The position numbers and the translations under genes were made by a program. Below, in pieces: positions 6,028 to 64,000 of a stretch of DNA of 64,000 nucleotides. The notes beneath the pieces are model-generated. The model did no database searches. It worked only from the letters and a program-made list of their open reading frames with translations, and was not told where the DNA came from. This stretch comes from Promethearchaeota archaeon (GTDB taxonomy: Archaea > Asgardarchaeota > Lokiarchaeia > Sigyniarchaeales > SOKP01). The DNA lies in NCBI GenBank assembly GCA_048941625.1, contig JBHLNK010000002.1:5098-69097 (forward strand), written 5' to 3'. Within the stretch, counting starts at the first letter, position 1; every line of letters starts with the position of its first letter.

Positions 6028-6071
6028 TTAAGATATATAATTTAAAGCAAATTTAAAATAAGGTTTATAAA

Positions 6072-6989: not shown

Positions 6990-6998
6990 GAATTTCTG

Positions 6999-12083: not shown

Positions 12084-13817
12084 TCATTTGAGAATTTTAA
12101 TTCCTCTCAGTTCCAACTTATGTAGTACGTCTAAATATCCCTTGATGTTATTTTTTTCTATATTTAGATATTGAAGAGAGGGAAGTGATTCCAAGGATGC
12201 TGGAAGATCCATCAAATAATTTGATCTTAAAAATAAATATTTCATCTTTTTAAGCCGTCCTATTGAATCAGGCAAACTAGTCAATTTATTGTTTCCTAAA
12301 TATAAGTATTTTAGAGATTGCAATGACCCTATAGTTTCAGGAATTTGTTCTAATTCGTTATAATATAAATAAAGGTGCTTAAGTGAAGTAAGGGCGCCTA
12401 TACTTTCAGGAATGGAGATTAAATGATTTTTACCAACATCTAATACTTCCAGAGTTGTAAGAAAACCCAAAGATTTTGGGATTATTGATAATTTATTGAA
12501 ACCTATAATTAGATTCTTTATTATTGGAAGTGCACCGATAGATGGATGGATCTCTTTTAATTTATTAGTGGAAAGATCTAATTCCAAAAGAGAATTTAAT
12601 AAACCTATTGATTCAGGCAATTCAACTAATAAATTTTTACTTAAATCTAATATTTCTAAAGAAGTAATTGAACCAATAGATTCAGGTAAATTCATCAATT
12701 GGTTATCATATAGATTTAATTCTTTAAGAGATTTTAATTTTCCAATTGATTCAGGTAGCTCTCCAATTTGATTGATATTTAATCTTAATGTTTCAAGGTT
12801 GTTAAGATTCCCTATGGATTCAGGAAGCGATTTTAAATTATTTCTACCACATCTTAAAATTTTGAGAGAAGAGAGTTCTCCAATAGAATCTGGTAATTTT
12901 TCTAATTTGTTATCTGACATTTCAAGCCTTAACAAAGATTTGAGGGAACCTATTGAATTGGGGATATCTGTCAACATGTTAGAAGACACACTTAAGTTTT
13001 CTAGTGAAGATAAAGACCCAATACTTTCAGGAAGAGACTTTAACTTGTTTGAAGATAAGCCTAAATAAATTAAATTTTTTAATTGACCTACTGTTTCAGG
13101 TAATCTAACTAGTTTATTTCCCTTTAAAAAGAGTGAAGTAAGAGATGACAAAGAACCTATAGTTATTGGCAAGTTTTCTATTTCATTATTTCTTAAGTTC
13201 AATCTATTAAGTGATGCTAAATTACTAATTGCATTAGGGAGACTTGTCAATCTATTGTTTCCTAAATAGAGAATTTCTAAGTTTTTCAAATTTCCTATAG
13301 AATCAGGTAGAATTTCTATTTTATTGCCACTTAAATCTAAAGTTTTTAGATTTTGTATTTTTTCAATTGAGGATGGAATTCTTTTAAGTTTATTTTCACT
13401 AACATCTAATATTTCCAAATAACCAAGTGATCCAATTGAATCTGGTAACCTTTCCAATTGATTTGTTTCTAAGTGTAATTCTCTAAGAGATGAAAGGAGA
13501 TTAATAGATTCTGGTAATTCTGCAAAATGATTTTCACTTAAATCGAAAACTTCAAGTTTATCTAAATTGAATAATTCCATAGGTATTGAATCTAAGTTAT
13601 TACCTCTAAGGTAAATTTCTTTCAAGGCAGAAAATACTTCAATTTCCTCAGGAATTGTGGATAATCCACAAGAATAAAGACTCAAACCAGTAATGTGACC
13701 TCCTTCCAGACGATAACCTAAAGAGTACCGCTCTAACTGAGAAAATTCAGTTATATTTTCTCCTATATGCTCTTTGAGTGTTTCTAATGCTTCTAATTCA
13801 TCTTCTAAAATTGACAT
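12084..13817 (-). CDS. Leucine-rich repeat protein (~21-22 tandem 23-aa repeats)
   Basis: Repeats of LxxLxLxxNxLxxLPxSIGxLxx over nearly the whole length, short N-cap. Confidence 0.95.
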   Translation of the reverse strand: MSILEDELEALETLKEHIGENITEFSQLERYSLGYRLEGGHITGLSLYSCGLSTIPEEIEVFSALKEIYLRGNNLDSIPMELFNLDKLEVFDLSENHFAELPESINLLSSLRELHLETNQLERLPDSIGSLGYLEILDVSENKLKRIPSSIEKIQNLKTLDLSGNKIEILPDSIGNLKNLEILYLGNNRLTSLPNAISNLASLNRLNLRNNEIENLPITIGSLSSLTSLFLKGNKLVRLPETVGQLKNLIYLGLSSNKLKSLPESIGSLSSLENLSVSSNMLTDIPNSIGSLKSLLRLEMSDNKLEKLPDSIGELSSLKILRCGRNNLKSLPESIGNLNNLETLRLNINQIGELPESIGKLKSLKELNLYDNQLMNLPESIGSITSLEILDLSKNLLVELPESIGLLNSLLELDLSTNKLKEIHPSIGALPIIKNLIIGFNKLSIIPKSLGFLTTLEVLDVGKNHLISIPESIGALTSLKHLYLYYNELEQIPETIGSLQSLKYLYLGNNKLTSLPDSIGRLKKMKYLFLRSNYLMDLPASLESLPSLQYLNIEKNNIKGYLDVLHKLELRGIKILK

Positions 13818-48856: not shown

Positions 48857-50131
48857 TTGAAAATTATTCATACTTACAGGCAACATCCAGGAGATACTGG
48901 TTCAGATATTTTTTTCGATGAGTTAACAGATGAAATGAAAAAAAAAACTTTGAACATCAAAATCATTACATCTGATTTAATTAGATGGGGTAAACATTTT
49001 AAGTATTATACTACAATTAGAGAGAAAAATAAAAGCTTAGGAATAATTAGAATTCCATTTACACTGTTAAGATTTATTAATCCATGGTTTTTTAATCTTA
49101 ATAAAAATAGTAAATTTAGGCAATTAGATAAATTCATTTTTAAGTTCGAAAAAAAAATCATCCGATTTTTGAGGGTTTTGTCATATAAATTGAATCTCAT
49201 TATTCCTTGGGGTTTATTTCAAGATGAGTTGGGTTGGAAATTATTTTTAATCTTAATAAAACAAAATTTTGATTTTATTCATACAACTTGTATTCCTAGG
49301 TCATGTATTACTGCTTCATTATTAGCAGCTAAAATCAAAAAAATACCAATAATGATTACACCCTTTTATCATTATCAAGAAAAAAGATTTTATGAAAATG
49401 ATAAATTCTGGATGAGGATCCTAAGAAATTTTGATTGTATAAATGTTTGTACAGACACAGAAAAAGATTATATGATACAGCATGGAATAAATTCTAAAAA
49501 AATAATTAAAGTAGGATTAGGTGTCTATTTTGATGAAATAAAACTCGAGAATGATAATAATTGGCGGGAGAAACTTCAGATTGAAAATGATAAATTTGTA
49601 GTTTTATATATGAATTCCATTATTTCTGATCCCCTTAAAGGTGTTCACCAAGTAATAGAAGCAGCTGCAAAATTACCAGAATTCCATTTTATCTTTGCAG
49701 GGAAGGATGAAAGAATTTGGAATAATATGATTTTACGTTATAATAAGAAATTTGACTTAAAAAATTGTCATTTTGTAGGATATGTTGTTGGTAAAGCTAA
49801 ATACTCATTATTCCATACTTCAGATTTAATTGTACGCCCCAGTATTAATGAAGCGTTAGGTATTTTTTATTTAGAAGGTATGAGTGCTGGAAAACCAATT
49901 ATTACCTCTAACATTGATTCTATGAAGGAAATTTCAAACAATGTAGGTTTTTGTGTAGAACATGGAAATGTTCAGGAATTAATTGAAAAAATTAAAATTC
50001 TCCAATCAAATAAGAGTCTATACCATGAATTTTCTAAAAATGCTATTAAGAAAAGTGAAGGATATAGTTGGAGAGTAATCTCAAGAAAATTTGAAAGGTT
50101 ATACGATATTTTATTAAAATTACAAAAATAA
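48857..50131 (+). CDS. GT4-family glycosyltransferase
   Basis: KG, PSINEALGIFYLEGMSAGKP. Confidence 0.85.
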   Translation: MKIIHTYRQHPGDTGSDIFFDELTDEMKKKTLNIKIITSDLIRWGKHFKYYTTIREKNKSLGIIRIPFTLLRFINPWFFNLNKNSKFRQLDKFIFKFEKKIIRFLRVLSYKLNLIIPWGLFQDELGWKLFLILIKQNFDFIHTTCIPRSCITASLLAAKIKKIPIMITPFYHYQEKRFYENDKFWMRILRNFDCINVCTDTEKDYMIQHGINSKKIIKVGLGVYFDEIKLENDNNWREKLQIENDKFVVLYMNSIISDPLKGVHQVIEAAAKLPEFHFIFAGKDERIWNNMILRYNKKFDLKNCHFVGYVVGKAKYSLFHTSDLIVRPSINEALGIFYLEGMSAGKPIITSNIDSMKEISNNVGFCVEHGNVQELIEKIKILQSNKSLYHEFSKNAIKKSEGYSWRVISRKFERLYDILLKLQK

Positions 50132-50235
50132 AATTAAAATAGTAAATTATTAACTTTTTTTATATACAATTAATTATATTAACTAAGATTAAGAAATTTC
50201 ACCTTAAATAGAAGAAATCTAAAATCCGAATTATT

Positions 50236-51081
50236 ATGCTTAAGGTCAAAAGTTTAAATATTCTTAAAAAAAAAATATTTCTTGGTCCTTTTTCAAATTA
50301 TATAGATATTATTTACGAAGGAGTTCTTAATATCTTCGAGATACTAAAAATTCGATTGTGGGTAGGAAAGTTTCTTAATATATTAAATCTCCGTATGGTA
50401 AGGGATATTAGAATTGATTTAAAAAATAAAAAGTTTTTTTTACAATTTATTAAAAGAGGTGATTTATGTTTTGATGTAGGTGCAAATATTGGTAAAATAT
50501 CAAATATCCTTTTAAATATTGGAGCAAAAGTGATTTGTATAGAACCTCAAAAATCATGTTTAAAAAGTCTTAACATTTTATTTCGAAATAATGAGAATGT
50601 GATTATTGTAAATAAAGCATTAGGCGCAAAGGAAGGGAATGGAGAAATTTATATCTGTGATGATGCCAATGCAATGTCAACTTTATCAGAAGATTTTATA
50701 AATAAAAGTAGATACTCTGAAGATTATAATTGGAGAAAAAAATCAAAGGTGGCAATTACTACATTAGATAAGTTAATACAGATATATGGATTACCAAAAT
50801 ATTGTAAAGTTGATGTAGAAGGGTATGAATTAGAAGTATTCCAAGGTCTTTCTAAAAAAATTCCAATTATTAGTTTTGAATTTCATATGGAATTTATCAA
50901 TATAGCAAACGAATGTCTAAAACTACTTTCCATATTAGGTGATATTGAAGTAAATTTTGCTAAAAGCGATGTAAAAGAACTAATTTTAGATAAATGGGTA
51001 TCACCACAAGATCTAACAAAATTCTTAAAATCTATAAAAGATGAGTTTTTGTGGGGAGATATATATGTTAAATTTATATAA
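50236..51081 (+). CDS. FkbM-family methyltransferase
   Basis: FDVGANIG, IEP, KVDVEGYELEV. Confidence 0.9.
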   Translation: MLKVKSLNILKKKIFLGPFSNYIDIIYEGVLNIFEILKIRLWVGKFLNILNLRMVRDIRIDLKNKKFFLQFIKRGDLCFDVGANIGKISNILLNIGAKVICIEPQKSCLKSLNILFRNNENVIIVNKALGAKEGNGEIYICDDANAMSTLSEDFINKSRYSEDYNWRKKSKVAITTLDKLIQIYGLPKYCKVDVEGYELEVFQGLSKKIPIISFEFHMEFINIANECLKLLSILGDIEVNFAKSDVKELILDKWVSPQDLTKFLKSIKDEFLWGDIYVKFI

Positions 51082-51124
51082 TATTATGAATATTTTATAG
51101 GAAGCCATATCAAAATAATTGATA

Positions 51125-52102
51125 TTAATTGATATTATTTTTTCGCCATATATACCTTGTTAAGAAGAAATTAAATGAGTTCTTGATAAAAGCTTTCCAA
51201 AATTCCAATGAAAATAAAACATTCATTCTTGAAATAATATTTATGAAGATAAAGATTTTTGACAAAAAAATCTTAGGATTATTTATGATAATAATGACTA
51301 ATCTTTCTCCAATCTCTGATTTAACACGATTTAGTAATATTTTTTGAACTTTTGGAAGGTGACTTAACATTTTATTAATTATGAATATTCTATCTTCAAG
51401 TTGGGATAAGCGAGATAATGGATGATAATAAGATTGGCCATTGCAATAAGGTTTAATCATCCTTATAGTAGTACTGACTGAATTATCCCAATAATTCCAA
51501 AATATTTTTGATGAACATAAAGTATCACCTGCCATCATAGCTTGCGTCATAAGTACCTGTTGCATGTATGTGCACCCTATAAACTCTTTTGCTTGATTAA
51601 TGTTTAATGGTTCCTTTTTTATTACTAAACCTGTTAAAAAATGTATATTAAAACCTAATTCAATTAATGATTCAGCCCCCCCTTTATAAATTCTATCATT
51701 GAACATTATTGGAATTTTATTCTTATGTGATCTTTTATCACCTACCGAACCAACTATAGTTGATAAATTTTTCTGTTTTTTAATTATATTTAGTATGTAT
51801 GGGAATGCCTCAATATCAGGATTCTCATCATCACCGCAAAAAAAAAGAAATTCTCCGTTAGCTCGTTCAACTAATTTAAGAATATTTCCATCAAAACCTA
51901 GATTTTTATCATTTCGAAAATATTTAATCCGATCATCTTTAATACTTTCAACTAATTCCTTTGTATTATCTACTGAAGCATTATCACTTATAACAATTTC
52001 AATTTCCTCGCTTTTAAACTTAATAATCTTATTTAATAAATCATATAGAATAGTGTCTCGATTATAAGTGGGAATGCATATACTCAAAATCGGTTTTTTT
52101 AT
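51125..52102 (-). CDS. GT2-family glycosyltransferase
   Basis: (IKKPIL)SICIPTYNR, SDNASVD, NLG, GDD. Start is either TTG 52087 or ATA 52102. Confidence 0.88.
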   Translation of the reverse strand: MKKPILSICIPTYNRDTILYDLLNKIIKFKSEEIEIVISDNASVDNTKELVESIKDDRIKYFRNDKNLGFDGNILKLVERANGEFLFFCGDDENPDIEAFPYILNIIKKQKNLSTIVGSVGDKRSHKNKIPIMFNDRIYKGGAESLIELGFNIHFLTGLVIKKEPLNINQAKEFIGCTYMQQVLMTQAMMAGDTLCSSKIFWNYWDNSVSTTIRMIKPYCNGQSYYHPLSRLSQLEDRIFIINKMLSHLPKVQKILLNRVKSEIGERLVIIIINNPKIFLSKIFIFINIISRMNVLFSLEFWKAFIKNSFNFFLTRYIWRKNNIN

Positions 52103-52264
52103 AAAAATCCACCATTATTTTATGTATTCATGAAATCCTAAAATTTTCTAGCTTAATAATTATAGTCATGCTTTAGAATAAAGATTTTATTGTTTATTTA
52201 TCTAATATTAAAAAGATTTGCTAATTTACATGGATGTACGTGAAAGAAGTATAATAGAATGTTA

Positions 52265-53125
52265 TTATATCATATCATTTTTAAGTATTGAATTTAATTT
52301 TGAATTATCTCCCCAAAAAGCCATAGGTACATAATCTGGATATGGATAATACCCCAAGTTTAGTTTTATGGATTTGCCTTTCTTTTTAATATAATTTTCA
52401 ACTAATTCTTTTATAGAAATAGGTTTCCCACTACAACAGTTAATTTTTCCAGTTATCTTCTTCTGTAATGAAATTCTCACAATATATTCTGCTACCTTAC
52501 TAATATGTAAATAATCTCTAATTTGTTCTCCACCAGACATATTAAATATTTCTTTATCATTTTCTAAGGCTTTATCTAGTTGGGCGATTAGTGAATTTGG
52601 ATTTTGACCTTGTCCATACATATAAAAAAGTCTTATCCACTTGAAACTAAAATTAAATTTATCATTTAGTAATTCAATAAATCTTCTTAATGTGTCTTTT
52701 GCTATTGAATATGCATTTATTGGATTAGTTTCTATATCTTCTGATAGACACCCACTTTTCATACCATATTCAAAACAAGTCCCAATTATGTTTACATCTT
52801 TTAGCCCATTTTTGATAATGTTCTTAATAAAGTTATAATTGGAAAATAGGTTTCTTTCAAAATGATAAAATTCATTATAATTAGGTAATCCTTCCCAAGA
52901 TAAATGGATAAGAGAATCTGGTTCCTCAAAAAAAGTGAAATAATTCTTTTTAGATTCATTCAAATCACATTGAATATACTTTACTCTATCATACCATTCA
53001 AAATTTCGAATATTTTTAGTTAGATCAATTGAAGTAGCTATTATTTGATATCTATTTAAACTCAACAGTTCTTTCACTACATAATTTCCAATAAAGCCTG
53101 TCGCTCCAGTTACTAAAATTTTAAT
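52265..53125 (-). CDS. NAD-dependent sugar-nucleotide 4-reductase/epimerase (extended SDR)
   Basis: In-frame IKILVTGATGFIG upstream of the ORF-track start; GTCFEYG, YSIAK, RLFYMYG, RDY. Confidence 0.88.
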   Translation of the reverse strand: MKILVTGATGFIGNYVVKELLSLNRYQIIATSIDLTKNIRNFEWYDRVKYIQCDLNESKKNYFTFFEEPDSLIHLSWEGLPNYNEFYHFERNLFSNYNFIKNIIKNGLKDVNIIGTCFEYGMKSGCLSEDIETNPINAYSIAKDTLRRFIELLNDKFNFSFKWIRLFYMYGQGQNPNSLIAQLDKALENDKEIFNMSGGEQIRDYLHISKVAEYIVRISLQKKITGKINCCSGKPISIKELVENYIKKKGKSIKLNLGYYPYPDYVPMAFWGDNSKLNSILKNDMI

Positions 53126-53152
53126 GAAAAATTCACCAGAAATTTATAAATT

Positions 53153-53713
53153 TCAAATTATTTTTTGCCCAATTCCATCAAAACCATTATCTAATAATTG
53201 CAAATTTTTATCCCTTTCTGAAATGTCTGAAAGCTTTAATGGCCATTCGATTTTTATTTTAGGGTCATTATATCTAATACCACCTTCCTTTTTTGGATCA
53301 TAAAACTCAGTAACAAAATACAAAATTTCAATATTGTCTTCTAAAGATTGAAATCCATGGGCAAATCCTTCAGGAATATAAAGCATTTTCATATTACTTG
53401 CAGATAAAATTTCTCCATACCAACTCAATAATGTAGGAGAATCCTTTCTTAGGTCTATCGCTACATCAAAAATCGATCCTTTAATACACTTTATAATTTT
53501 TATTTCAGCTTTAGGGGGATATTGAAAATGCATACCTCTTATTGAACCTTTCCTCTTTGTTAAAGAATGATTAATATTTACTATATTCTTAGAATGATTG
53601 ATTTGTTTCAATTCATCTAGGCAAAAAACACGAACAAACATGCCACGATCATCCAAAGATGGTTTTGGTTCGATGATATAAAGATCTTTTATTTTGGTTT
53701 TTTTAAATTCCAT
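53153..53713 (-). CDS. NDP-4-keto-6-deoxyglucose epimerase (RmlC/RfbC cupin)
   Basis: DDRG.F, RGMHFQ, DVAIDLRKDSPT, IPEGFAHGFQ. Confidence 0.9.
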   Translation of the reverse strand: MEFKKTKIKDLYIIEPKPSLDDRGMFVRVFCLDELKQINHSKNIVNINHSLTKRKGSIRGMHFQYPPKAEIKIIKCIKGSIFDVAIDLRKDSPTLLSWYGEILSASNMKMLYIPEGFAHGFQSLEDNIEILYFVTEFYDPKKEGGIRYNDPKIKIEWPLKLSDISERDKNLQLLDNGFDGIGQKII

Positions 53714-53723
53714 TTAAACAACT

Positions 53724-54818
53724 CTAATTTTCAATTTTTTGAAAATACTGCTTTATTTGACTAACATCAAAATCATAATCAATCTCTTCTTCTAAGTACC
53801 AATCACAAATAAATGAAATTGTTTGATCTATACTAAGTTTTGGTTCCCATTTAAGGTACTCATAAGCTTTTGAACTATCTATCAATAATAATTCAGTTTC
53901 ATGAAATTTGTTATTTTCTTCTTGAGAGGGTGTTTTAATTCTTCCTTTCCCAATTTGATCTATGATTTTTTCAGCAATTTCTCTAACTGAAAATATATTA
54001 TTATAGTTTGGACCAAAATTCCAAGCTCCTGAATATTTTTTTCCGTCTTCCCACATTTTTATAGCCAGAATTAGAAAACCTCTTATAGGTTCAAGAACAA
54101 ACTGCCATGGTCTAATATAATTTGGATTTCTTATAACAATTTCTTGATTGTCTCTAATTGCTTTTAAACAATCTGGAATTAATCGATAATCTTGCCAATC
54201 ACCACCACCAATAACATTCCCACATCTAACTGAAGCAATAAATTTATTAATAAATGGTGTTTCCAAATTTAAAAATGACTTTCTATATGCAGAAGTTATT
54301 AATTCAGAGCAAGATTTGCTCGAACTATAAGGATCATATCCTCCTAATCGATCCTCTTCTTTGTAACCTTTCTTTAATTCTTGATTTTCATAAACCTTAT
54401 CTGTTGTACAATTTACCATTAATTTACATGAGCCTTGATTTCTAAAAATTTCGAAAAGATTTACAGTTCCACCAACATTAATATCATATGTTTCCTTAGG
54501 ATTAAGATAAGATTTTTTAACAAGAGGTTGAGCAGCAAGGTGAAAAACTATTTGTGGTTCATATTTATTAAAAACTTTATTTAATTTTTTAAAATTTCTT
54601 ATATCTCCAATAATACTAACCATTTTATCTTTAAGGTTACTCACAACAAAATTATCATTATGAGTATGAGGTGGCAAAGCATAACCAATAACTTCAGCAC
54701 CTAATTCGTTAAGTGTAATTGATAACCAAGATCCTATAAAACCAGTATGTCCTGTAATCAATATTTTTTTATTTTGAAAAAAACTACCAAATATTTTTTT
54801 CATTTCCAAATCTTCCAA
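53724..54818 (-). CDS. rfbG: CDP-glucose 4,6-dehydratase
   Basis: ITGHTGFIGSWL, HLAAQPLV, TTDKVY, DPYSSSK, GNVIGGGDW, RPWQ. Confidence 0.93.
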   Translation of the reverse strand: MEDLEMKKIFGSFFQNKKILITGHTGFIGSWLSITLNELGAEVIGYALPPHTHNDNFVVSNLKDKMVSIIGDIRNFKKLNKVFNKYEPQIVFHLAAQPLVKKSYLNPKETYDINVGGTVNLFEIFRNQGSCKLMVNCTTDKVYENQELKKGYKEEDRLGGYDPYSSSKSCSELITSAYRKSFLNLETPFINKFIASVRCGNVIGGGDWQDYRLIPDCLKAIRDNQEIVIRNPNYIRPWQFVLEPIRGFLILAIKMWEDGKKYSGAWNFGPNYNNIFSVREIAEKIIDQIGKGRIKTPSQEENNKFHETELLLIDSSKAYEYLKWEPKLSIDQTISFICDWYLEEEIDYDFDVSQIKQYFQKIEN

Positions 54819-55576
54819 TAAGCTTTATCTTTGTTCCATATATCATTTAAATACTCAACATCTCTTTCATGATCCATACAACCCCAAGTACCTTCATGTT
54901 TATACACCATAATCTCTCCAATTGCAGCTAATTCTTCTAATGGACCTCTTTCTAAATCACAATCTTCATCTGGGGTTAAATAACTAAGAAATTTTCTATT
55001 AAATACCATAAATCCACCGTTTATTAATCCGATTGAGGTCTGTGGTTTCTCTCGAAATAGTAAAATTTTTCCATTTTTTTCACTAATTTCACCAAAACGA
55101 GAAGGGGCATGAACTCCTGTAATTGTTAATAATTTCCCATGAGATTTATGGAACTCTAATAATCTTGAAATATTAATATCCGCTAAACCATCCCCATAAG
55201 TCAACATATTTATCTCAGAGTCTAGATACTTTTCAATTCTTTTAATTCTACCTCCTTTAAGAGTATTTAATCCAGTATCAATCAATGTTACTTTCCAATT
55301 AATCTCTTCTTTAAAATCATAAAATTTAATTCTTCCATTAGATAAATCTATAGTAAAATCATTGTTCTTCATATCATAGTTATAAAAATAGTCCTTGATT
55401 ACATTTCCTTTCACTCCTAAACATATAATAAATTCATTGAAACCAAAAAAAGAATAAATTTTCATTATATGCCATAAAATTGGTTTATTTCCAATTCTTA
55501 CCATTGGTTTGGGAATTAGTTCGGCCATAGATCCCAAACGTGTGCCCCATCCTCCTGCTAAAATGACAACTTTCAT
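54800..55576 (-). CDS. rfbF: Glucose-1-phosphate cytidylyltransferase
   Basis: LAGGWGTR, PKPMV.IG.KPILWHIMK, DTG..T..GGR, TYGDG, INGGF. Confidence 0.93.
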   Translation of the reverse strand: MKVVILAGGWGTRLGSMAELIPKPMVRIGNKPILWHIMKIYSFFGFNEFIICLGVKGNVIKDYFYNYDMKNNDFTIDLSNGRIKFYDFKEEINWKVTLIDTGLNTLKGGRIKRIEKYLDSEINMLTYGDGLADINISRLLEFHKSHGKLLTITGVHAPSRFGEISEKNGKILLFREKPQTSIGLINGGFMVFNRKFLSYLTPDEDCDLERGPLEELAAIGEIMVYKHEGTWGCMDHERDVEYLNDIWNKDKAYWKIWK

Positions 55577-55624
55577 TGTACATCTTCTATTTTAGATATC
55601 TATTTACTTATTATGTTTTTTTAA

Positions 55625-56686
55625 TTAAAGAAACATATGTTTATTATTATTTACCCAATCTATTAATTTTTTAACACCTTTTTTAGGGTTGATCTTTGGA
55701 TTCCAATCAAGAATTTTTTTAGCTTTCTCAATATTAGAAATATATACTTTTTGATCACTAGGTCTCCATTCATGAAAATCAAATTCGATTTTTTTTCCTA
55801 ATTCTTTTTCTAATATCTCAATCAATTCTAATAAAGACAGTGTATTATTAATACCTCCTCCAATACAAAAAACATCATGTTTTAGTTTTTCTGATTTTTG
55901 AAGATATGAATCAAAAACATTAATTAAATCCGATATATATAGAATATCTCTAACTTGCTTACCATCTCCGAAAATTTTAATGTTCTTACCTGTGATAGCA
56001 GAAATAACAAAATGAGCAACCCAACCTTGATCTTCAAATCCGAATTGCCTTGTTCCATATATGCATGACATTCTGAATACTGCTGTTTTAAGGCCATATA
56101 TGTGAGCATAATCTTGAAAGTAAAGATCAGAACATAATTTTGAAGTTCCATAGGGAGTATGTTCACATAGATCAATCGGGAAATTTTCAGAAATACCGTT
56201 CGAATATTCATCATCAAATTCATATCGAGATTCTTTCTCTATAACATGACATTGATTTACATTATTCCCAAATACTTTATTTGTGGAACATATTATCATT
56301 GCAGGATCTTGTTTTGATTCTCGTACTGATTCTAAGAGATTAAAGGTTCCTATAACATTGTTCTCGAAATCAGCTGATGGATGTATTACCGATGTTGTCA
56401 CTGCTGTTTGAGCTGCTGTATGAACAACCGCATCAATTTCATTATTTTTAAATATTTCTTTAAGAAATTCAAAATTACGAATATCTTTTTCATAGAAGTT
56501 TATATTTTTATACTTATGCAAATAATCCCAATTATAACTATCATATAGAGAATCTTTTTTAAGCAATACTGATCTCGAAAGGTTGTCAATTAATATTATT
56601 TCTTCGATTTTTTCATCATTAGCATAAAACTCAGCAATATGGGAACCTATAAATCCCCCTCCACCAGTAACCAAAATTGTTTTCAT
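55625..56686 (-). CDS. CDP-paratose 2-epimerase-like SDR (RfbE/Tyv type)
   Basis: TGGGGFIG, AQTAVTTS, STNKVFG, TPYGTSK, FRMSCIYG.RQFG.EDQGWVAHF, GKQVRD. Confidence 0.85.
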   Translation of the reverse strand: MKTILVTGGGGFIGSHIAEFYANDEKIEEIILIDNLSRSVLLKKDSLYDSYNWDYLHKYKNINFYEKDIRNFEFLKEIFKNNEIDAVVHTAAQTAVTTSVIHPSADFENNVIGTFNLLESVRESKQDPAMIICSTNKVFGNNVNQCHVIEKESRYEFDDEYSNGISENFPIDLCEHTPYGTSKLCSDLYFQDYAHIYGLKTAVFRMSCIYGTRQFGFEDQGWVAHFVISAITGKNIKIFGDGKQVRDILYISDLINVFDSYLQKSEKLKHDVFCIGGGINNTLSLLELIEILEKELGKKIEFDFHEWRPSDQKVYISNIEKAKKILDWNPKINPKKGVKKLIDWVNNNKHMFL

Positions 56687-56771
56687 CAGACTTCATTAAA
56701 ATTATTAATTAATAGGAATTAACATTTATAATAATAAAAACTTAATTTATATGGATAACGAGGATTCTAAA

Positions 56772-57827
56772 TTAAATAATCGATTGAATATATTCTAATA
56801 ATAAATTCTTAGCAGTCTGAACAGAGTATTTCTTCTTAATTCTCTCATTTGCTTTATTATTAAGTGAATATCCGTTTTCTTTTACGAGTTTCATTTTCTC
56901 AATAAGATCCTCCACATTATCTCGCTTAAAGTAAAGAGGATAATCACGTAAAATTTCTCTATGAATCACAGTGTCTGAAGCAATGGTAATTTTGTTAAGA
57001 AACGCCGCTTCGACAGGTGTTAAACCAAACCCTTCAAAAATTGAAGGATCAACATAAAAATCTGATTGTATAATTGCTTTTAGAGCCTTTTCATGAGATA
57101 ATGGAAAATGAGGACAATTTAATTTTATACTTTTATCATAATGAGGTCCAATCACAGCAATTTTTAGTTTTAATCTATTTGCTGCTTCAACAAAAATTTC
57201 TTGACGTTTGATTTTTACGATTCTACTAATATTTATTGCATCATACTTTTTATCTAGATTCCTGGGAAGGTTCTTAATAAGTTCTGAATCTGCAGAGAGA
57301 TACCATACTTTTGACCCTAATTTTAAAAATCTTTTTGCTAAATATTGAGTATATTTTGAAATAGAGAGATTTAAATCTGATTTTTTTAGAAAATTTCTAT
57401 AATTGAGTTGATAAAATACTTTATTTCGAAACTGCGTATTTACTATCCGATTAAATAAATTTATGGGATAATATTTATTTCTCGCTCCTTTTTGTTGAGA
57501 AAAAAGAAAATTTGCCCTTTTATTAATAAAATTATATTTATGATAACCATTATAAATTGTTTGCCTTGCTAATCTGGAGATTGAATTCAGATTGAAGCTT
57601 TTTTCCAACCTCCAAAGAGGAACATCTAAAATTACATTAATTAATTTAATTTTATGTCTTTTTATTTTATTCAGATTTTTATATACATCATATATATATG
57701 TGTGACTTTGACAAATAACTAGATCAACATTAGTAGAAAACTGATTAAAGAGTATATGATGACCATCATCTTCTAGTGATTTAAAAAGATGTTTTAATAA
57801 ATTTCCTCCATAGAAGCTAATATTCAT
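56772..57827 (-). CDS. GT4-family glycosyltransferase
   Basis: SRIVKIK, PSIFEGFGLTPVEA. Confidence 0.82.
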   Translation of the reverse strand: MNISFYGGNLLKHLFKSLEDDGHHILFNQFSTNVDLVICQSHTYIYDVYKNLNKIKRHKIKLINVILDVPLWRLEKSFNLNSISRLARQTIYNGYHKYNFINKRANFLFSQQKGARNKYYPINLFNRIVNTQFRNKVFYQLNYRNFLKKSDLNLSISKYTQYLAKRFLKLGSKVWYLSADSELIKNLPRNLDKKYDAINISRIVKIKRQEIFVEAANRLKLKIAVIGPHYDKSIKLNCPHFPLSHEKALKAIIQSDFYVDPSIFEGFGLTPVEAAFLNKITIASDTVIHREILRDYPLYFKRDNVEDLIEKMKLVKENGYSLNNKANERIKKKYSVQTAKNLLLEYIQSII

Positions 57828-57877
57828 AGTTAAATATCCCTTATTCTGATTTATTTTAACGAATTATAATTTTAGGT

Positions 57878-58897
57878 TTAAATATCAGTTTTGACAATTT
57901 CAATTAGTCTTTCCATAATTTTCTCCCATGTATATTTTCTTAAGATTAATTCATACCCTTGGAGAGCTATTTTTTCACGAATTTCTTCATTTTTCAAATA
58001 ATATTTGACCAGTTTTAAGCATTCTTCTTCATTACTAAACCAATCTAAATGAATTTTTTTTTTAAAAATTTTTTCTAGGTCTTTACAGTATTCACTTAAT
58101 AGAAAAGATCCTGTTCCAATTACCTGGAATACTCTAACAGAGAAACCAACCTTTTCTTGATTAAAGTTTAATATGACTTTTGCAATTCTATACTTATTAA
58201 CCAAATCTTTTAGATAGATTGGTTTGTTGTTCCATCCATTACCATAACATACAACATTTATTTTATTTTTTTTTAAAAAATTTATATATCTTTCACGCTT
58301 TTCAGAAAAAGTACCAACAAAGATAACATCGATTTCCTTTTTTACGACGATGTCGCTAGGCTTAAACATGCGTGTATCTATTCCTTGAGTTAAGAAATAA
58401 CTATTAGCTCCTTTTTTGTTAAAATATTTATATACACTAGTATAAGATGAGCTACTCCAAGTGCTAAATTTGGCATATATATCGGCATTCATATTAATTG
58501 CAATACTTAAAGCATCCATGAAATAATAGAATGTGTGAGAATATTTATTCAACTTGGGAATTAAATTATAGTTAATTTCATTTGTTTTAGCTAATATTAT
58601 CAAATCATAGTTATTGTGTTCTACCTCAGAAAACAAATTCTTATTCATGGACCGATTTCCTAATAAAAAATACTTTACAGTTTTTAGTTTTTTAGGGAGG
58701 AAATATAGCGTGTCTATCTTTTTAACTAAAAAATTAACAATTTTAACATAATAAATAAAATTAAGTTTTCTAAATCTTGTAGATAATTCTCTAAAATCAA
58801 ATTTTTTAACAAGATGATTCTTTCTACTTAATTCTTGTGCCATAGGAATATTTGTCGACCAAGGTTTATTAAATACTCCTATAAACAATATTTTCAT
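57878..58897 (-). CDS. GT-B glycosyltransferase (CgeB-like)
   Basis: FVGT...R, YGNGW, RVFQ..GTG.FLLSE, REKIA..G. Confidence 0.8.
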   Translation of the reverse strand: MKILFIGVFNKPWSTNIPMAQELSRKNHLVKKFDFRELSTRFRKLNFIYYVKIVNFLVKKIDTLYFLPKKLKTVKYFLLGNRSMNKNLFSEVEHNNYDLIILAKTNEINYNLIPKLNKYSHTFYYFMDALSIAINMNADIYAKFSTWSSSSYTSVYKYFNKKGANSYFLTQGIDTRMFKPSDIVVKKEIDVIFVGTFSEKRERYINFLKKNKINVVCYGNGWNNKPIYLKDLVNKYRIAKVILNFNQEKVGFSVRVFQVIGTGSFLLSEYCKDLEKIFKKKIHLDWFSNEEECLKLVKYYLKNEEIREKIALQGYELILRKYTWEKIMERLIEIVKTDI

Positions 58898-59199
58898 TTA
58901 ATTCCCCCCAAGATATAACATATAAGTTTTATTATAATTAAATTAACATAATTATTATTGAGAAATTGCTAATTGTCCTTCAATTAAATAAAATAACTAA
59001 AATGATTATATAGAATATTTGATTTATCAAATAATACATAGCAATTTAAATTTTTCATTTTTCCAAAATTTCCAAACATTTATTGCTAAATTATTTATTT
59101 ATGGATAAAATTTATCAATTTTATCTATGATAATATAAAAAAAGTATATAATCAGTGAATTTTTACTTAATTTAAATTTCTGTATAATTTTGATTTTAT

Positions 59200-60078
59200 T
59201 TGAGTATGTATAGCATATCAGTTTTCTTAAAAAAACTTACTAACTTTATTAAATTTCCATTTTTTAAAAAACTGGTATTCATTTATCTTAAATCGAAAAA
59301 TCCCTTAGAATTATCAGATTTAGAGTTCCAAACAAAATTTTCAAATTCGTATGCTCTGATCTCTGAATTAAGATCTAAAAAATTTCAAAAAATTATTAAT
59401 AGACTAGAAAGTTACATTGGAATTGGTTATTTTGGGCCAAAAAAATATTGGGAATATCCATGGGTTTTGGCAAATCTTCAATTAAAAAAAGGTATGTCAA
59501 TATTGGATGTAGGATGTGGTACAAGCCCTATCCAATTTTTACTTTCTGATTTAGGATGTAAAGTTACAGGAATAGATCCATATTTGAATATGAAATGGCA
59601 TGGTATTAATCAAAAATTGAATAAAAGATTTAATTGTGATGTTAAATATCATCAAGGATCTGGGGAGTCTGTAAGTTTTAAGGATAATACATTTGATCGG
59701 GTAATATGTGTATCTGTCATTGAACATTGTAGAGAGAGTAAGAGTTTTAATGGAAAATATTTACCTTTAAATGAAATAGATCATAAACTTCAACAAAAAA
59801 TGTTAAAAGAAATGATAAGAGTTCTAAAACCAGGAGGTTTATGCGTAGTAACGGTTGATTTCTTTATACCAAGGAATAATCTCTCGCTAGAATATAATAT
59901 AAATGTTAGTAAGTTAATTGAAAGTGTTAAGGCAAATATGTTTGGCATTAAAATTAATGAACCTTTCCCTGGAGAACCAAACTTTAACTTTATTAGCTTA
60001 ATTGAGAATTCTGATATTCAAATCGTTAATTATAGATCTCTAATACAGACTTCAATTGGATTTACTTTAAAAAAATAA
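59200..60078 (+). CDS. Class I SAM-dependent methyltransferase
   Basis: WEYPW, LDVGCG, FDRVICVSVIEH, RVLKPGG; start may be ATG 59206. Confidence 0.87.
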   Translation: MSMYSISVFLKKLTNFIKFPFFKKLVFIYLKSKNPLELSDLEFQTKFSNSYALISELRSKKFQKIINRLESYIGIGYFGPKKYWEYPWVLANLQLKKGMSILDVGCGTSPIQFLLSDLGCKVTGIDPYLNMKWHGINQKLNKRFNCDVKYHQGSGESVSFKDNTFDRVICVSVIEHCRESKSFNGKYLPLNEIDHKLQQKMLKEMIRVLKPGGLCVVTVDFFIPRNNLSLEYNINVSKLIESVKANMFGIKINEPFPGEPNFNFISLIENSDIQIVNYRSLIQTSIGFTLKK

Positions 60079-60197
60079 ATGTAAATTTTATTAACATCAA
60101 TTATTTTAACACTATCTTTAAGAGAAGTAATAAAAATATTTTTTAATGAACTTTAATTATATTTAATTAAATATAATTAAAAAATGATAAAAACATT

Positions 60198-60434
60198 ATG
60201 TCAAATGAAGAACATAAAGTCGAATACACTACGGTTTCAATTCCTAAACCTTTAGCAGAGAAAGTAAAAGAACGAATGAAAGGAACAGGTTTTTCTTCTG
60301 TTTCTAGTTATGTAACTTATGTATTGAGACAATTATTATCCTCCATAGAAGAAGAAAGGTCAAAGCAAGCATTTACTAAAGAAGAAGAAGAAAAGGTCAA
60401 AAAAAGACTAAGAGATTTAGGATATATAGATTAA
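60198..60434 (+). CDS. CopG/ribbon-helix-helix protein with C-terminal RLRDLGY tail
   Basis: TTVSIP strand, helix, GFSSVSSYVTYVLR helix, then EEEEKVKKRLRDLGYID. Confidence 0.85.
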   Translation: MSNEEHKVEYTTVSIPKPLAEKVKERMKGTGFSSVSSYVTYVLRQLLSSIEEERSKQAFTKEEEEKVKKRLRDLGYID

Positions 60435-60483: not shown

Positions 60484-61632
60484 ATGATAGAACCACATGG
60501 AGGCAGATTAATTAGTAAAAATTTACCTAGATTTGAAAAAGAAAGAATAATCAGAGAAATTGATGAATTCAATAAAGTAATTGTCGGACCAGAAACAATA
60601 AAGGTTATTAAGAATATAGCTTTTGGAGTTTTCAGCCCATTAGAGGGATTTATGAATGAGAACGATTATAGTTATTCATTAAATACCATGTATCTAGAAA
60701 ATGATATTGCTTGGCCTTTCCCAATAACTCTAGATGTCTCTGAAGAAGAAATTTATGATATAAAAAGTGATGATCAACTTATTCTAATGGACGATAGAGA
60801 AACTCCTATTGCTTTAATGAATGTAGAAATGATTTACAATTATAGCAAAAAGGAATATGCAAAAAAAACATTTGATACTTTAGATAAAAGTCATCCAGGA
60901 GTTAATAATGTCTTTAGTTATAAAAGCAAACTTATAGGAGGAAAAATTTACTTAATTAACGAACCTAGTCCAGTCTTTCCAAATTTAGATTTAAAGCCAA
61001 TAGAAACAAGAGTACTATTTAAGGAAAAAGGATGGGATAGAATTGTGGCTTTTCAGACTAGAAATCCACCCCATTTGGGACATGAATATATTCAAAAAGC
61101 AGGATTAACGTATGTAGATGGATTATTCATCAATCCAGTAATTGGCAAGAAAAAAAAAGGAGATTTCTTAGATGATGTAATAATTGAGTCATATAAAGCT
61201 CTAATCGAAGAATACTACCCAAAAAATAGAGTTGTATTAAGTACATTTGAGACAGAAATGAGATATGCTGGGCCTAAAGAAGCTATATTCCACGCAATAA
61301 CAAGGAAAAATTTTGGTTGTGATCATATAATCATTGGTCGTGATCATGCAGGAGTGGGTGGTTTTTATGGTCCTTATGATGCACACGATATCTTTGATAA
61401 CTTTCCAGATTTAGGTATTAAACCAATAAAATTCAGATCTTTTTCAAAATGCTCCAAATGTAATTCTGTTGTAAATGATAAAATTTGTCCTCATCCACCA
61501 AAAATGCAGAATTATTTCGCTGGAAGAGAAATCAGAGAAAAATTAAAGAGTGGGATATCTCCTGATCCGGAAGTTATGCGGCCTGAAGTTACAAAAGTAA
61601 TTTTACAATATGAAAATCCTTTTGTAACTTAA
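60484..61632 (+). CDS. sat: Sulfate adenylyltransferase (ATP sulfurylase)
   Basis: PHGG, FSPLEGFM, FQTRNPPHLGHE, MRYAGPKEA, IIGRDHAGVG, Zn site C..C......CPH. Confidence 0.96.
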   Translation: MIEPHGGRLISKNLPRFEKERIIREIDEFNKVIVGPETIKVIKNIAFGVFSPLEGFMNENDYSYSLNTMYLENDIAWPFPITLDVSEEEIYDIKSDDQLILMDDRETPIALMNVEMIYNYSKKEYAKKTFDTLDKSHPGVNNVFSYKSKLIGGKIYLINEPSPVFPNLDLKPIETRVLFKEKGWDRIVAFQTRNPPHLGHEYIQKAGLTYVDGLFINPVIGKKKKGDFLDDVIIESYKALIEEYYPKNRVVLSTFETEMRYAGPKEAIFHAITRKNFGCDHIIIGRDHAGVGGFYGPYDAHDIFDNFPDLGIKPIKFRSFSKCSKCNSVVNDKICPHPPKMQNYFAGREIREKLKSGISPDPEVMRPEVTKVILQYENPFVT

Positions 61633-61660: not shown

Positions 61661-63055
61661 ATGATTGTTATGAAGAATAAAAAAAAAATACTCGTTATAG
61701 GTTTAGACTGTGCTACTCCTAAAACTATATTTGAAGATTTCTTGGATGACTGTCCAACATTAAAAATGATGATAAAAAATGGGGTATATGGAAAATTAAG
61801 AACATGTGATCCACCGATTACTATTCCTGCATGGATGGTTATGTCAACTGGTAAGAAAGCGGGGACTCTTGGATTATATGGATTTAGACATAGAAAAGAT
61901 AACTCATATGATGATTACTGGATCGCAACATCAAATAATATAAAAGAGCCAAAGATATGGGATATAATAGCAAAAAAAGGTTTGAAATCCTGTATCTTAG
62001 GGATACCTCCAACATATCCTGTTCAGCCAATAAATGGGTGGGTTGTTTCAGGTTTCATTACTCCTGATATATCGTCAAATTTTACATACCCCTCAGAATT
62101 AAAGAAAGAGATAGAAGAAAATATTGGGAAATATATTATAGATGTGAATTTTAGCGTAGACGACAAATTAGTTTTATTAACAGAGATTTATGAAATGACA
62201 AAAGTTCAATTCAAAACAATAAAGTATCTATTACAAAATAAACAATGGGATTACTTTAAATTCGTAATTATTGGATTAGACAGATTTCATCATGCCTTTT
62301 GGAAATTTTATGATAAAAATCACCCTAAATACAAAACCAATAATCAATTTGAAGGAGAATTAAAGAAATTTTATCAATATTTGGATAAAGAAATTGGAGA
62401 AATATTGAATTTACTGGACGAGAATACAAGTGTAATGGTCGTCTCAGATCATGGTGCAAAAGCTATGAAAGGTTTAATATGTATTAATATGGCTCTTGAA
62501 ACACTAGGTTTATTAAAGTTTAGAAGCAAACCAAAACCTAAAACTAGATTAGCTGATAATGATATTGATTGGTCAAATACCTATGCTTGGGGTTGGGGGG
62601 GATATTATGCAAGAGTTTTTCTTAATGTAGAAGGTAGAGAGCCTAACGGGATTATTAAGCCAAAAAATTACGAAAAAATGAGAGATGAAATAATAGGTAA
62701 AATTAAGACTATAAAAGATAATATGGGTAATTCAATGAATACTATAATTAAGAAACCAGAAGATATATTTGAAGTCGTTAATGGGGATTCACCAGATCTT
62801 ATGGTTTATTTTGATGATTTAAATTGGAGATCTGCTGGTACAGTTGGGTATGATTCAATGTATTTAGATGAAAATGATACTGGTCCTGATGATGCTGTTC
62901 ATGATTGGTTTGGTATTTATATTTTATATGATCCTAAAAAAAAAATAGGGAAAAACTTAGGAATAAAAAGCATATTAGACATTGCTCCAACATCTTTAAA
63001 GATATTAGGTGTTGAAATTCCTAAAGATTTAGAGGGTAATATAATTTATTTTTAA
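61661..63055 (+). CDS. Alkaline-phosphatase-superfamily (NPP/type I phosphodiesterase-like) protein
   Basis: IGLDCA, PPITIPAW (Thr nucleophile), DRFHH, VSDHG, DDAVH. Confidence 0.88.
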   Translation: MIVMKNKKKILVIGLDCATPKTIFEDFLDDCPTLKMMIKNGVYGKLRTCDPPITIPAWMVMSTGKKAGTLGLYGFRHRKDNSYDDYWIATSNNIKEPKIWDIIAKKGLKSCILGIPPTYPVQPINGWVVSGFITPDISSNFTYPSELKKEIEENIGKYIIDVNFSVDDKLVLLTEIYEMTKVQFKTIKYLLQNKQWDYFKFVIIGLDRFHHAFWKFYDKNHPKYKTNNQFEGELKKFYQYLDKEIGEILNLLDENTSVMVVSDHGAKAMKGLICINMALETLGLLKFRSKPKPKTRLADNDIDWSNTYAWGWGGYYARVFLNVEGREPNGIIKPKNYEKMRDEIIGKIKTIKDNMGNSMNTIIKKPEDIFEVVNGDSPDLMVYFDDLNWRSAGTVGYDSMYLDENDTGPDDAVHDWFGIYILYDPKKKIGKNLGIKSILDIAPTSLKILGVEIPKDLEGNIIYF

Positions 63056-63071: not shown

Positions 63072-63611
63072 ATGGAACATAAAGGATTTACATTATGGTT
63101 TACGGGATTACCTTGTTCAGGTAAAACTGTACTTGCAAATGCTGTTAGAGATGATTTGAAAGCAAAGGGTATGAAAGTAGAAAGACTTGATGGAGATATT
63201 GTACGTAAGAGTTTAACAAAAGATTTAGGCTTTACTGAAGAAGATCGAAATATGAATATTGAGCGAGTAACATTTGTTGCTAAACTCTTAACCCGAAATG
63301 GAGTTGCTGTTCTTGCTTCTTTTGTATCACCTTATAATAAAATAAGACAATATTCTCGAAAAGAGATTGGAGATTTTATTCTTGTCTATGTGAAGTGTTC
63401 AATTGAAGTATGTGAAGATAGAGACGTTAAAGGAATGTATATGAAAGCTAGATTAGGGGAAATTAAAGATTTTACCGGAATTAACCATCCTTTTGAAGAA
63501 CCTCTGAATGCAGATATCATTGTTGAGACTGATAAGCAAAATATAGGTGAAAGTAAAGAAATAATAATAAAAGCATTAGATTCAATGGGTTATTTACCTA
63601 AAGAAATATGA
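63072..63611 (+). CDS. cysC: Adenylyl-sulfate kinase
   Basis: WFTGLPCSGKT, LDGDIVR, LGF..EDR, SP, RDVKGMY, FTGI..PFEEP. Confidence 0.96.
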   Translation: MEHKGFTLWFTGLPCSGKTVLANAVRDDLKAKGMKVERLDGDIVRKSLTKDLGFTEEDRNMNIERVTFVAKLLTRNGVAVLASFVSPYNKIRQYSRKEIGDFILVYVKCSIEVCEDRDVKGMYMKARLGEIKDFTGINHPFEEPLNADIIVETDKQNIGESKEIIIKALDSMGYLPKEI

Positions 63612-63638: not shown

Positions 63639-64000
63639 TTATTCGAGTATTTCTTTTATCTGGTTTATTAATTCTTTTTTGTTCAAACCATAATAATCGA
63701 ATAAAATCTCCCGATTTCCAGATTGACCAAAGTTATCTTCTATACCAATAATCTTTATAATCTTAGGGACTCTTTTTGAAATAATTCTTGCTATTATACT
63801 ACCAAAACCACAATAAACATTATGTTCTTCTAGAACAATAATTCCTTTAACTTCTAATAACTCATTTAATAGTACTTTTTCATCAATAGGTTTAACAGTA
63901 GGAAGATTTATCACCTTAACTGATATTTTTAGCTGTTTTTCAATCTCCATACTTGAATTAATAGCAAGAACACTACCATATCCAGTTCCTATAAAACAAA
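63639..64000 (-). CDS. Transketolase C-terminal-type subunit (5'-truncated by the window)
   Basis: Frame open to the window end (CFIGTGYGSV...); NLPTVKPID, LEEHNVYCGFGS, IGIEDNFGQSG. Confidence 0.85.
   Translation of the reverse strand, partial: CFIGTGYGSVLAINSSMEIEKQLKISVKVINLPTVKPIDEKVLLNELLEVKGIIVLEEHNVYCGFGSIIARIISKRVPKIIKIIGIEDNFGQSGNREILFDYYGLNKKELINQIKEILE

Follow-up and report, generated by a model that had tools for sequence, protein, structure and literature searches.

We found that the RHH (CopG-like) protein leading a PAPS operon in this Promethearchaeota archaeon ends in a tail of about 20 residues tipped with tyrosine, and that the AP-superfamily enzyme of the same operon lacks such a tail. 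Since the tail also ends CysC, CysH/CysD-fold, and DUF2061 proteins in other genomes, we regard it as a pathway-wide module. Our preferred reading, to which we give a rough probability of 0.4, is that the tail may serve as a tyrosine arm that receives or passes along a sulfuryl group at the active sites of AP-fold enzymes.

RESULTS

The RHH protein and its tail

The operon lies on the + strand of the window (the whole 64,000-nucleotide stretch of DNA analyzed), with the gene order RHH-sat-AP-cysC, an arrangement already published from archaea as the Pyrococcus copG cluster. Its features are as follows.

60198..60434, + strand: RHH (CopG-like) protein, 78 aa, C-terminus SKQAFTKEEEEKVKKRLRDLGYID
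60228-60245, + strand: likely DNA-recognition strand TTVSIP of the RHH protein
60372..60431, + strand: acidic helix and LxxLGY tail (F59-D78), with the Tyr76 codon at 60423-60425
60484..61632, + strand: sulfate adenylyltransferase (Sat), 382 aa (NF003166, 467.8 bits, cutoff 387; also Pfam)
61661..63055, + strand: tail-less AP-superfamily (NPP-like) enzyme, 464 aa (PF01663, E 1e-43), C-terminus IPKDLEGNIIYF
63072..63611, + strand: adenylyl-sulfate kinase (CysC), 179 aa, without an extra tail here (TIGR00455, 225.5 bits, cutoff 138.7)

Positions 60360-60434 are the last 24 codons and the stop codon of the RHH open reading frame (ORF), whose terminal sequence is FTKEEEEKVKKRLRDLGYID. Because the Pfam RHH_1 (PF01402) score of this protein is 14 bits, below the cutoff of 20.5, its assignment rests on the names of its homologues in the source databases (CopG or Arc/MetJ type), on the Atlas, where it falls in CopG-family clusters at 0.94 to 0.96, and on its strand-helix-helix pattern. 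We found 935 homologues at 90% clustering, the best 120 of which are 86 to 95% identical to it, and 925 representatives at 50% clustering; most of the close ones are from Promethearchaeota and other Asgard bins. Searches of PDB sequences gave chance-level matches for the RHH protein and a best E value of 0.12 for the tail profile.

Among 45,871 six-frame ORFs of the whole genome, a C-terminal [RKQ]LxxLGY occurs once, in this tail, and a profile restricted to the RHH domain retrieves 305 distinct proteins, 287 of which also end in LxxLG-Y; judged from these sequence counts, the tail is not a chance ending. Residues L71, G75, and Y76 of the tail are invariant in alignment A4. In the 287 tails, the tyrosine is replaced neither by phenylalanine (0 of 287) nor by any other residue; of the 18 remaining proteins, at least 3 keep the tyrosine and the others end in unrelated sequence. 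In contrast, among 89 instances of a look-alike LGY that closes the core helix of CysC, Tyr occupies the position in 72, with Phe (9), Leu (4), Cys (3), and a gap (1) making up the rest. The hydroxyl therefore seems important in the tail. On the sequence evidence, this invariance would fit a hydrogen bond as much as a modification.

RHH-LGY proteins of 203 to 216 aa also exist (L089:398-1048, L093:1492-2139, P0138, P0153, P0173, and P0190); they carry an additional RHH-like or DUF7557 segment at the N-terminus, and their middle domain matches no Pfam family. When longer proteins were searched with the tail region, the sole match was a DnaB-N/RHH join, which looks like an assembly chimera and was rejected as weak evidence.

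The AP-superfamily enzyme of the window

Over its full length, the AP enzyme aligns at 32% identity to residues 11-527 of paralogue L151, a 573-aa protein that continues for 46 more residues with a linker and an LxxLGY tail. The preliminary description had noted that the RHH protein ends in a tail next to an AP enzyme without one, and had stated that many AP-fold relatives bear a tail past the enzyme core; the ends of the ORFs and this alignment bear out the former, and the tailed AP paralogues that we found confirm the latter. A truncated AP gene was considered and rejected, since all orthologues stop at the same place, and the absent tail is a trait of the whole orthologue clade (0 tailed among the best 80 of 534 loci) rather than a loss special to this genome.

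Residues D16, T54, D207, H211, D263, H264, and H414 are invariant in 86 AP orthologues, and from their positions we take them to be the Thr nucleophile and the Asp/His ligands of two metals. The window enzyme retains this NPP-type nucleophile and these metal ligands, in agreement with the fold match of its paralogue to NPP structures. It lacks the formylglycine (S1) sulfatase motif [CS]xPxR, having PPITIPAW; its PF00884 score is below the cutoff, and a search of PDB sequences gave no match for it.

The model of the tailed paralogue is NPP-like and aligns with Xanthomonas NPP (2GSN) over 346 residues (VIA Z 28.7, root mean square deviation 3.3) at 17% identity, sharing the fold, the Thr/Ser nucleophile, and the two-metal ligands; the alignments to NPP structures stop before the tail (model range to about 538). 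In this model the linker is disordered (pLDDT below 50 at 543-553), while the tail helix has a pLDDT of 93. Since the tail helix of a CysC control model scores 90, these values point to a strong helix and not to docking, and single-chain pLDDT was rejected as a sign of docking.

Tail-less AP enzymes and tail donors

In a phylum survey of 301 genomes, 94 of 101 RHH matches were kept (those with E ≤ 1e-8 plus six that were inspected), and six weak uninspected matches and one match to an AP tail were dropped; AP orthologues (E ≤ 1e-100) were found in 77 genomes. RHH and AP occurred together in 75 genomes, AP alone in 2, RHH alone in 19, and neither in 205. In both AP-only genomes the AP gene lies near a contig start, and 10 of the 19 RHH-only genomes have no A1 match at 1e-40.

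We also surveyed the best 80 of 534 confirmed GTDB loci of the AP orthologue, 78 of which are complete at the 3' end. The AP orthologue itself is tailed in none of these 80, and a visible tail lies within 6 kb of it in 67, on RHH in 57, on CysC in 9, and on a DUF2061 protein in 1. The nine loci with a tailed CysC (seven from Chloroflexota, one from Eisenbacteria, and one from Hydrothermarchaeota) contain no RHH gene. The other 13 loci of this set comprise 1 with an RHH protein without a visible tail, 7 cut by a contig end, and 5 with full flanks; in all 5 of the latter, a tail is found elsewhere in the genome, in four on RHH and in one on CysC and other proteins.

Among AP paralogues of Asgard genomes, 10 tailed ones lack an RHH gene in the fetched locus, and the LGY is kept in 0 of 11 paralogues within 200 bp of an RHH-LGY gene (one of the 11 being masked near its end and one a 253-aa fragment). 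The RHH-adjacent tail-less paralogues are spread over about four separate clades of a weakly supported tree (FastTree, 53 of 89 rows, tail columns cut, deep branches weak). Many tail-less AP paralogues have no RHH gene in their locus. Four AP paralogues beside RHH-LGY genes have tails that appear decayed, with the basic C-terminal helix kept and the LGY lost (L035:464-2044, L038:8315-9907, L045:8704-12280, and L057:5029-6618), and a bacterial locus (L322:2-2468) encodes a tail-less AP enzyme, a 64-aa RHH-LGY protein, and a 305-aa membrane protein.

The pairing of RHH tail and AP enzyme is not obligate. In five close relatives (L008, L028, L032, L168, and L170), the AP gene is cleanly absent from an RHH-sat-cysC locus and the tail is intact, and a 99% complete genome (G159) keeps the RHH tail and has no PF01663 match at all. 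A DHH gene takes the place of AP in L039, L040, L043, and L046, the last three of which also have a P-loop sulfotransferase, and such a sulfotransferase was matched in 5 of 5 AP-less genomes tested. RHH-AP-cysC loci without sat also occur (L104, L108, L110, L131, and L143). Because the surveyed genomes are related, all of these counts overstate independence.

The preliminary description had proposed that the DNA-binding protein supplies the tail in trans, and had suggested co-occurrence of tail-less AP genes with RHH-LGY genes as the check. The association stood in one direction, in that 75 of 77 Asgard genomes with AP have the RHH protein and the tail-less AP enzyme is accompanied by a tail on another protein in 67 of the 80 best loci and in the 5 full-flank ones, but not in the other, since the AP orthologue is missing from 19 of 94 RHH genomes, and both the five AP-less loci and G159 retain an intact RHH tail. 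From the sequence surveys, supply of a tail to AP in trans by RHH, CysC, or another carrier is therefore partly supported, by the untailed orthologues (0/80), the neighboring (67/80) and remote (5/5) tails, and the loss of LGY next to RHH (0/11). The narrower idea that the tail is simply the missing end of this one AP enzyme did not hold up, since it also ends proteins of other classes; we rejected it as exclusively the missing piece of this AP given the AP-less RHH genomes, G159, and those other carriers.

Other carriers of the tail

A 24-position profile, trained on tails from the same carrier classes that it later found, matched 5 of 5, 9 of 101, and 23 of 101 non-Asgard genomes (207 genome searches). 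The 55 distinct matches comprise 18 AP-fold, 14 RHH, 12 CysH/CysD-fold, 8 CysC, and 1 DUF2061 proteins and 2 microproteins or fragments, with no carrier outside these six classes, and the tail is C-terminal in 54 of the 55. Pfam assignments were made for 24 ORFs from tail-hit and neighboring loci.

In all 18 collected CysH/CysD-fold proteins with the tail, it follows an R-[AT]-G-R (R-x-G-R) motif, and ECG is present in none. One of them keeps the CC/CxxC cluster motif and aligns to Mycobacterium tuberculosis APS reductase (7LHR) as far as the tail junction, where, according to the portion of text available, the mobile tail with the sulfo-accepting Cys of that enzyme starts (PMC8173546). The LGY tail thus stands in for the sulfo-accepting ECGLH tail on proteins of the APS/PAPS-reductase fold. 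Proteins of the PF01507 fold with LGY in place of ECGLH are found at L229:823-1584, L233:601-1572, L214:1498-2322, and L064:4166-4975. Of 15 genomes with a tailed CysH/CysD-fold protein, 1 has a Sat match and none has an APS kinase match (1e-15). Because the tailed proteins mostly score best on CysD models, yet below the cutoff, they may be ATP sulfurylases. The ORFs downstream of the L214 protein are presumably aprB and aprA, judging from their sequences, and this suggests that the L214-type protein is a stand-alone, CysD-like ATP sulfurylase that replaces Sat.

In five haloarchaea-like genomes, 17 ORFs of the sulfatase family are tailed and the [CS]xPxR motif is present in 0 of the 17; the same set has 8 untailed rows, wrong-frame ORFs included. 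Searches of these five genomes gave no match for Sat or APS kinase. The CxPxR sulfatases of the host genome itself are untailed.

Several further arrangements were seen. Small membrane proteins of the DUF2061 family (98 to 99 aa) have a C-terminal Tyr tail in L130:2840-3139, L148:1209-1508, and L200:1270-1566, two of the three adjoining cysC in a DltX-like layout. Chloroflexota encode Sat-AP fusions of 863 aa together with a tailed CysC (L133, L137, L141, L142, L144, L147, and L149, at about 4800-8020). An AP-CysC fusion stands behind an RHH-LGY gene at L119:288-2090, and a stand-alone ORF of 37 aa (L232:1498-1611) consists almost entirely of the acidic helix and LGY tail.

Candidate operator

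Two elements were marked upstream of the RHH gene.

60144..60179, no strand: candidate operator of four T[AC]AT[TG]A hexamers in 10-bp phase, with starts at 60144, 60154, 60164, and 60174
60140-60147: TTTTTAAT box, a likely TATA element that overlaps the first hexamer

Three or more in-phase hexamers occur at one place in the 3.65-Mb genome, ahead of the RHH gene. At least three hexamers, a motif picked after inspection of 30 close upstream regions, were present in 22 of these 30 compared to 3 of 3,000 shuffles and 0 of 1,637 other intergenic upstream regions of the same genome. We also examined 111 RHH genes from other loci (56 operon-leading with a TTVSIP-type strand, 41 operon-leading with another strand, and 14 operon-internal). 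A double hexamer lies upstream of 35 of the 56 with the TTVSIP-type strand, compared to 1 of the 41 with another strand, that one having STVSIP, so the repeats at the gene's own promoter co-vary with the recognition strand as in an RHH repressor; among the operon-internal genes, 1 of 14 has a double hexamer. The double hexamer is also present in loci of Thermococcus, Bathyarchaeia, and Nitrososphaeria. A scan for sigma-70 promoters, a model unsuited to archaea, gave chance levels.

As the predicted operator overlaps the TATA-like box, repression of the sat-AP-cysC operon by its leading RHH protein, acting on the 10-bp-phased repeats, is likely. Autoregulation of the PAPS operon, which the preliminary description had also proposed, thereby gains good support from repeats that are unique in the genome and linked to the recognition strand.

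RHH proteins of the SISIP type (L057, L061, L062, and L063) have another shared upstream sequence. Some clusters contain two or three RHH-LGY paralogues with differing recognition strands (L056:7836-8501, L060:144-810, L050:7968-8578, L063, L225, and L227), and heterodimers of these are possible.

Genomic surroundings

The genes upstream of the operon encode glycosyltransferases and nucleotide-sugar enzymes. A surface-glycan cluster (48857-60078) directly precedes the PAPS operon and contains glycosyltransferases, a nucleotidyltransferase, dehydratases, a 3,5-epimerase, and a methyltransferase; no sulfotransferase was found among ten ORFs scanned there. The host genome (96% complete) has one P-loop sulfotransferase, no PF01507 match, and, as other pyrophosphatases, one of family I and two membrane pyrophosphatases. 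Downstream, an ORF for a transketolase C-terminal domain (63639-64000, - strand) converges on cysC and runs past the window end, with about 103 to 119 aa visible. At the other end of the window, an ORF on the - strand (345-1622) encodes what we take from its sequence to be a RadA-like protein, with a long N-terminal extension in which an acidic tract comes after a CxxC-x-H motif, and a 577-aa leucine-rich-repeat protein is encoded at 12084-13817 (- strand). Leucine-rich-repeat proteins of this sort are common in Lokiarchaeia.

DISCUSSION

Comparison with known systems

In Pyrococcus yayanosii, pych_17520-17560 comprise copG, ATP sulfurylase, DHH pApase, type I phosphodiesterase, and APS kinase, and the available portion of that paper treats copG as a putative regulator and speculates that the phosphodiesterase removes PPi (PMC8268124); the corresponding Thermococcus onnurineus cluster is TON_1704-1707 (PMC4463584, in part). 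By the descriptions in these excerpts, the window operon brings together the same genes in the same roles (copG, ATP sulfurylase, type I phosphodiesterase, and APS kinase), but, unlike those clusters, it contains neither a DHH pApase ORF between sat and AP (one is present in relatives L035 and L043) nor a TauE gene. One Thermococcus locus and several Archaeoglobi loci (L120, L122, and L125) have this RHH protein, the AP orthologue, and a tail; neither tail nor operator is mentioned in the available text of the two papers.

Like DltX and PatA, as described in an excerpt of PMC12148441, the tail is a short motif at the C-terminus whose Tyr is invariant and which occurs either as part of a microprotein or as an extension of a pathway enzyme, and the tailed DUF2061 proteins resemble the membrane microprotein version of the DltX arrangement. 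The motif there is FxYxxF with MBOAT/SGNH partners and an acyl group, whereas here it is a helix and LxxLGY with an AP fold, a proposed sulfuryl group, and a cytoplasmic DNA-binding protein as carrier; the FxYxxF hexapeptide is absent from the tail, and MBOAT or SGNH partner genes from the operon, which bars membership in that family while the analogy stands. Compared to the ECG(L/I)H tail of CysH (PMC8173546, in part), the LGY tail of the 18 CysH/CysD-fold proteins occupies the same place after R-x-G-R, but it has no Cys and its Tyr lies about five residues further out. Agl30 and Agl31, the N-glycan sulfotransferases of Halobacterium salinarum, share the AP fold by description but are sulfatase-like, whereas the window enzyme is NPP-like; the text searched does not name their sulfate donor, and "PAPS" has 0 occurrences in it (PMC11980604).

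Possible roles of the tail

In the sulfuryl relay that we prefer, a portable arm of sulfate-pathway proteins would enter AP-fold active sites, where a sulfuryl group would be transferred to its Tyr hydroxyl and from there onward. The RHH protein would bind the repeats and block the promoter of sat-AP-cysC, and the tail-less AP enzyme would work with a tail from RHH, CysC, or another carrier, moving a sulfuryl group from PAPS or APS via Thr54 onto Tyr76. The loaded tail could then donate to other acceptors or enzymes or report PAPS supply to the repressor. The complementary tail distribution, the carrier classes, the replacement of the ECG tail, and a Tyr that is never Phe speak for such an arm, as do the other pyrophosphatases of the host and the RHH-AP-cysC loci without sat. 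There is precedent, in the portions of text available, in the AP-fold sulfotransferases Agl30 and Agl31 (PMC11980604) and in the acyl shuttles based on a C-terminal Tyr, borne by the microprotein DltX or forming part of PatA (PMC12148441). Against it count the 19 of 94 RHH-LGY genomes without an AP orthologue, the RHH-sat-cysC loci, and G159, the many tail-less AP paralogues without RHH in the locus, and the high tail pLDDT on CysC and AP alike, which does not single out AP; in addition, a repressor bound to DNA would provide few carrier molecules. The excerpts available list the Thermococcus orthologue TON_1705 as a pyrophosphatase (PMC4463584) and offer PPi degradation as a speculative role for PYCH_17550 (PMC8268124). 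The Chloroflexota Sat-AP fusions fit a pyrophosphatase role of AP. The TON_1705 assay is reportedly that of Lee et al. 2009.

A wider form of the relay, which we consider doubtful, would make LxxLGY a general sulfotyrosine shuttle of prokaryotic sulfation. The Tyr would be loaded by the NPP-like enzyme or, in haloarchaeal genomes without an APS kinase match, by the CysH/CysD-fold enzyme whose arm replaces the Cys tail; AP-fold sulfotransferases such as Agl30/31 would unload it onto glycans; and on RHH the arm would make the repressor its own sulfate gauge.

The same complementary distribution of tail and AP would arise if the unmodified tail docked noncovalently on AP as a lid or inhibitor, tying up the repressor or switching the enzyme (a pyrophosphatase or PAPS hydrolase) by ligand. 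This is close to the idea of the preliminary description, and many AP-fold proteins do hold a tail in cis after a flexible linker; we nevertheless think it unlikely, as it leaves unexplained both the tail of CysH/CysD-fold enzymes, which sits where the catalytic Cys tail would be, and the tail kept in G159. Retention of the tail where AP is lost would be accounted for if AP were just the pyrophosphatase of the operon, as the available parts of PMC8268124 and PMC4463584 assign its orthologue, and the tail a sensor or contact module for Sat, CysC, a sulfonucleotide (APS, PAPS, or PAP), or another copy of the tail. The RHH gene stands ahead of sat in 30 of 30 close loci, with or without an AP gene, and the tail is fused to CysC and CysD-like enzymes, which fits this account; we judge it improbable given RHH-LGY genes that adjoin AP without sat or adjoin unrelated AP paralogues from which LGY has been lost, and given the 17 tailed haloarchaeal proteins of the sulfatase family in five genomes without a Sat or APS kinase match. 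That the tail is a structural helix cap, oligomerization helix, or degradation tag with no enzyme partner, spread by domain shuffling in one gene neighborhood, seems very improbable: LxxLGY does close the CysC core helix and the helix is confidently predicted wherever it is placed, but the tail, unlike that structural CysC motif, never has Phe for Tyr (0 of 287), no carrier beyond six classes appeared among the 55 matches, and cis tails on neighboring AP genes and RHH-LGY are mutually exclusive.

Significance

The operon is known; in the literature that we searched by motif and topic, we found no description of the tail, the operator, or this regulator. The predicted operator makes the RHH regulator directly testable, whatever the tail does, and a tyrosine arm common to a repressor, an APS kinase, a CysH/CysD-fold enzyme, a membrane microprotein, and AP-fold enzymes offers one residue to mutate and one mass shift. 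Such an arm would bear on the route by which AP-fold enzymes sulfate the surface glycans of archaea and many bacteria; the searched text of the Agl30/31 paper does not mention PAPS (PMC11980604). If the arm merely docks, it would still be an undescribed contact module; if it carries sulfate, it would do for sulfuryl groups what the DltX shuttle does for acyl groups and might offer haloarchaea a PAPS-free route.
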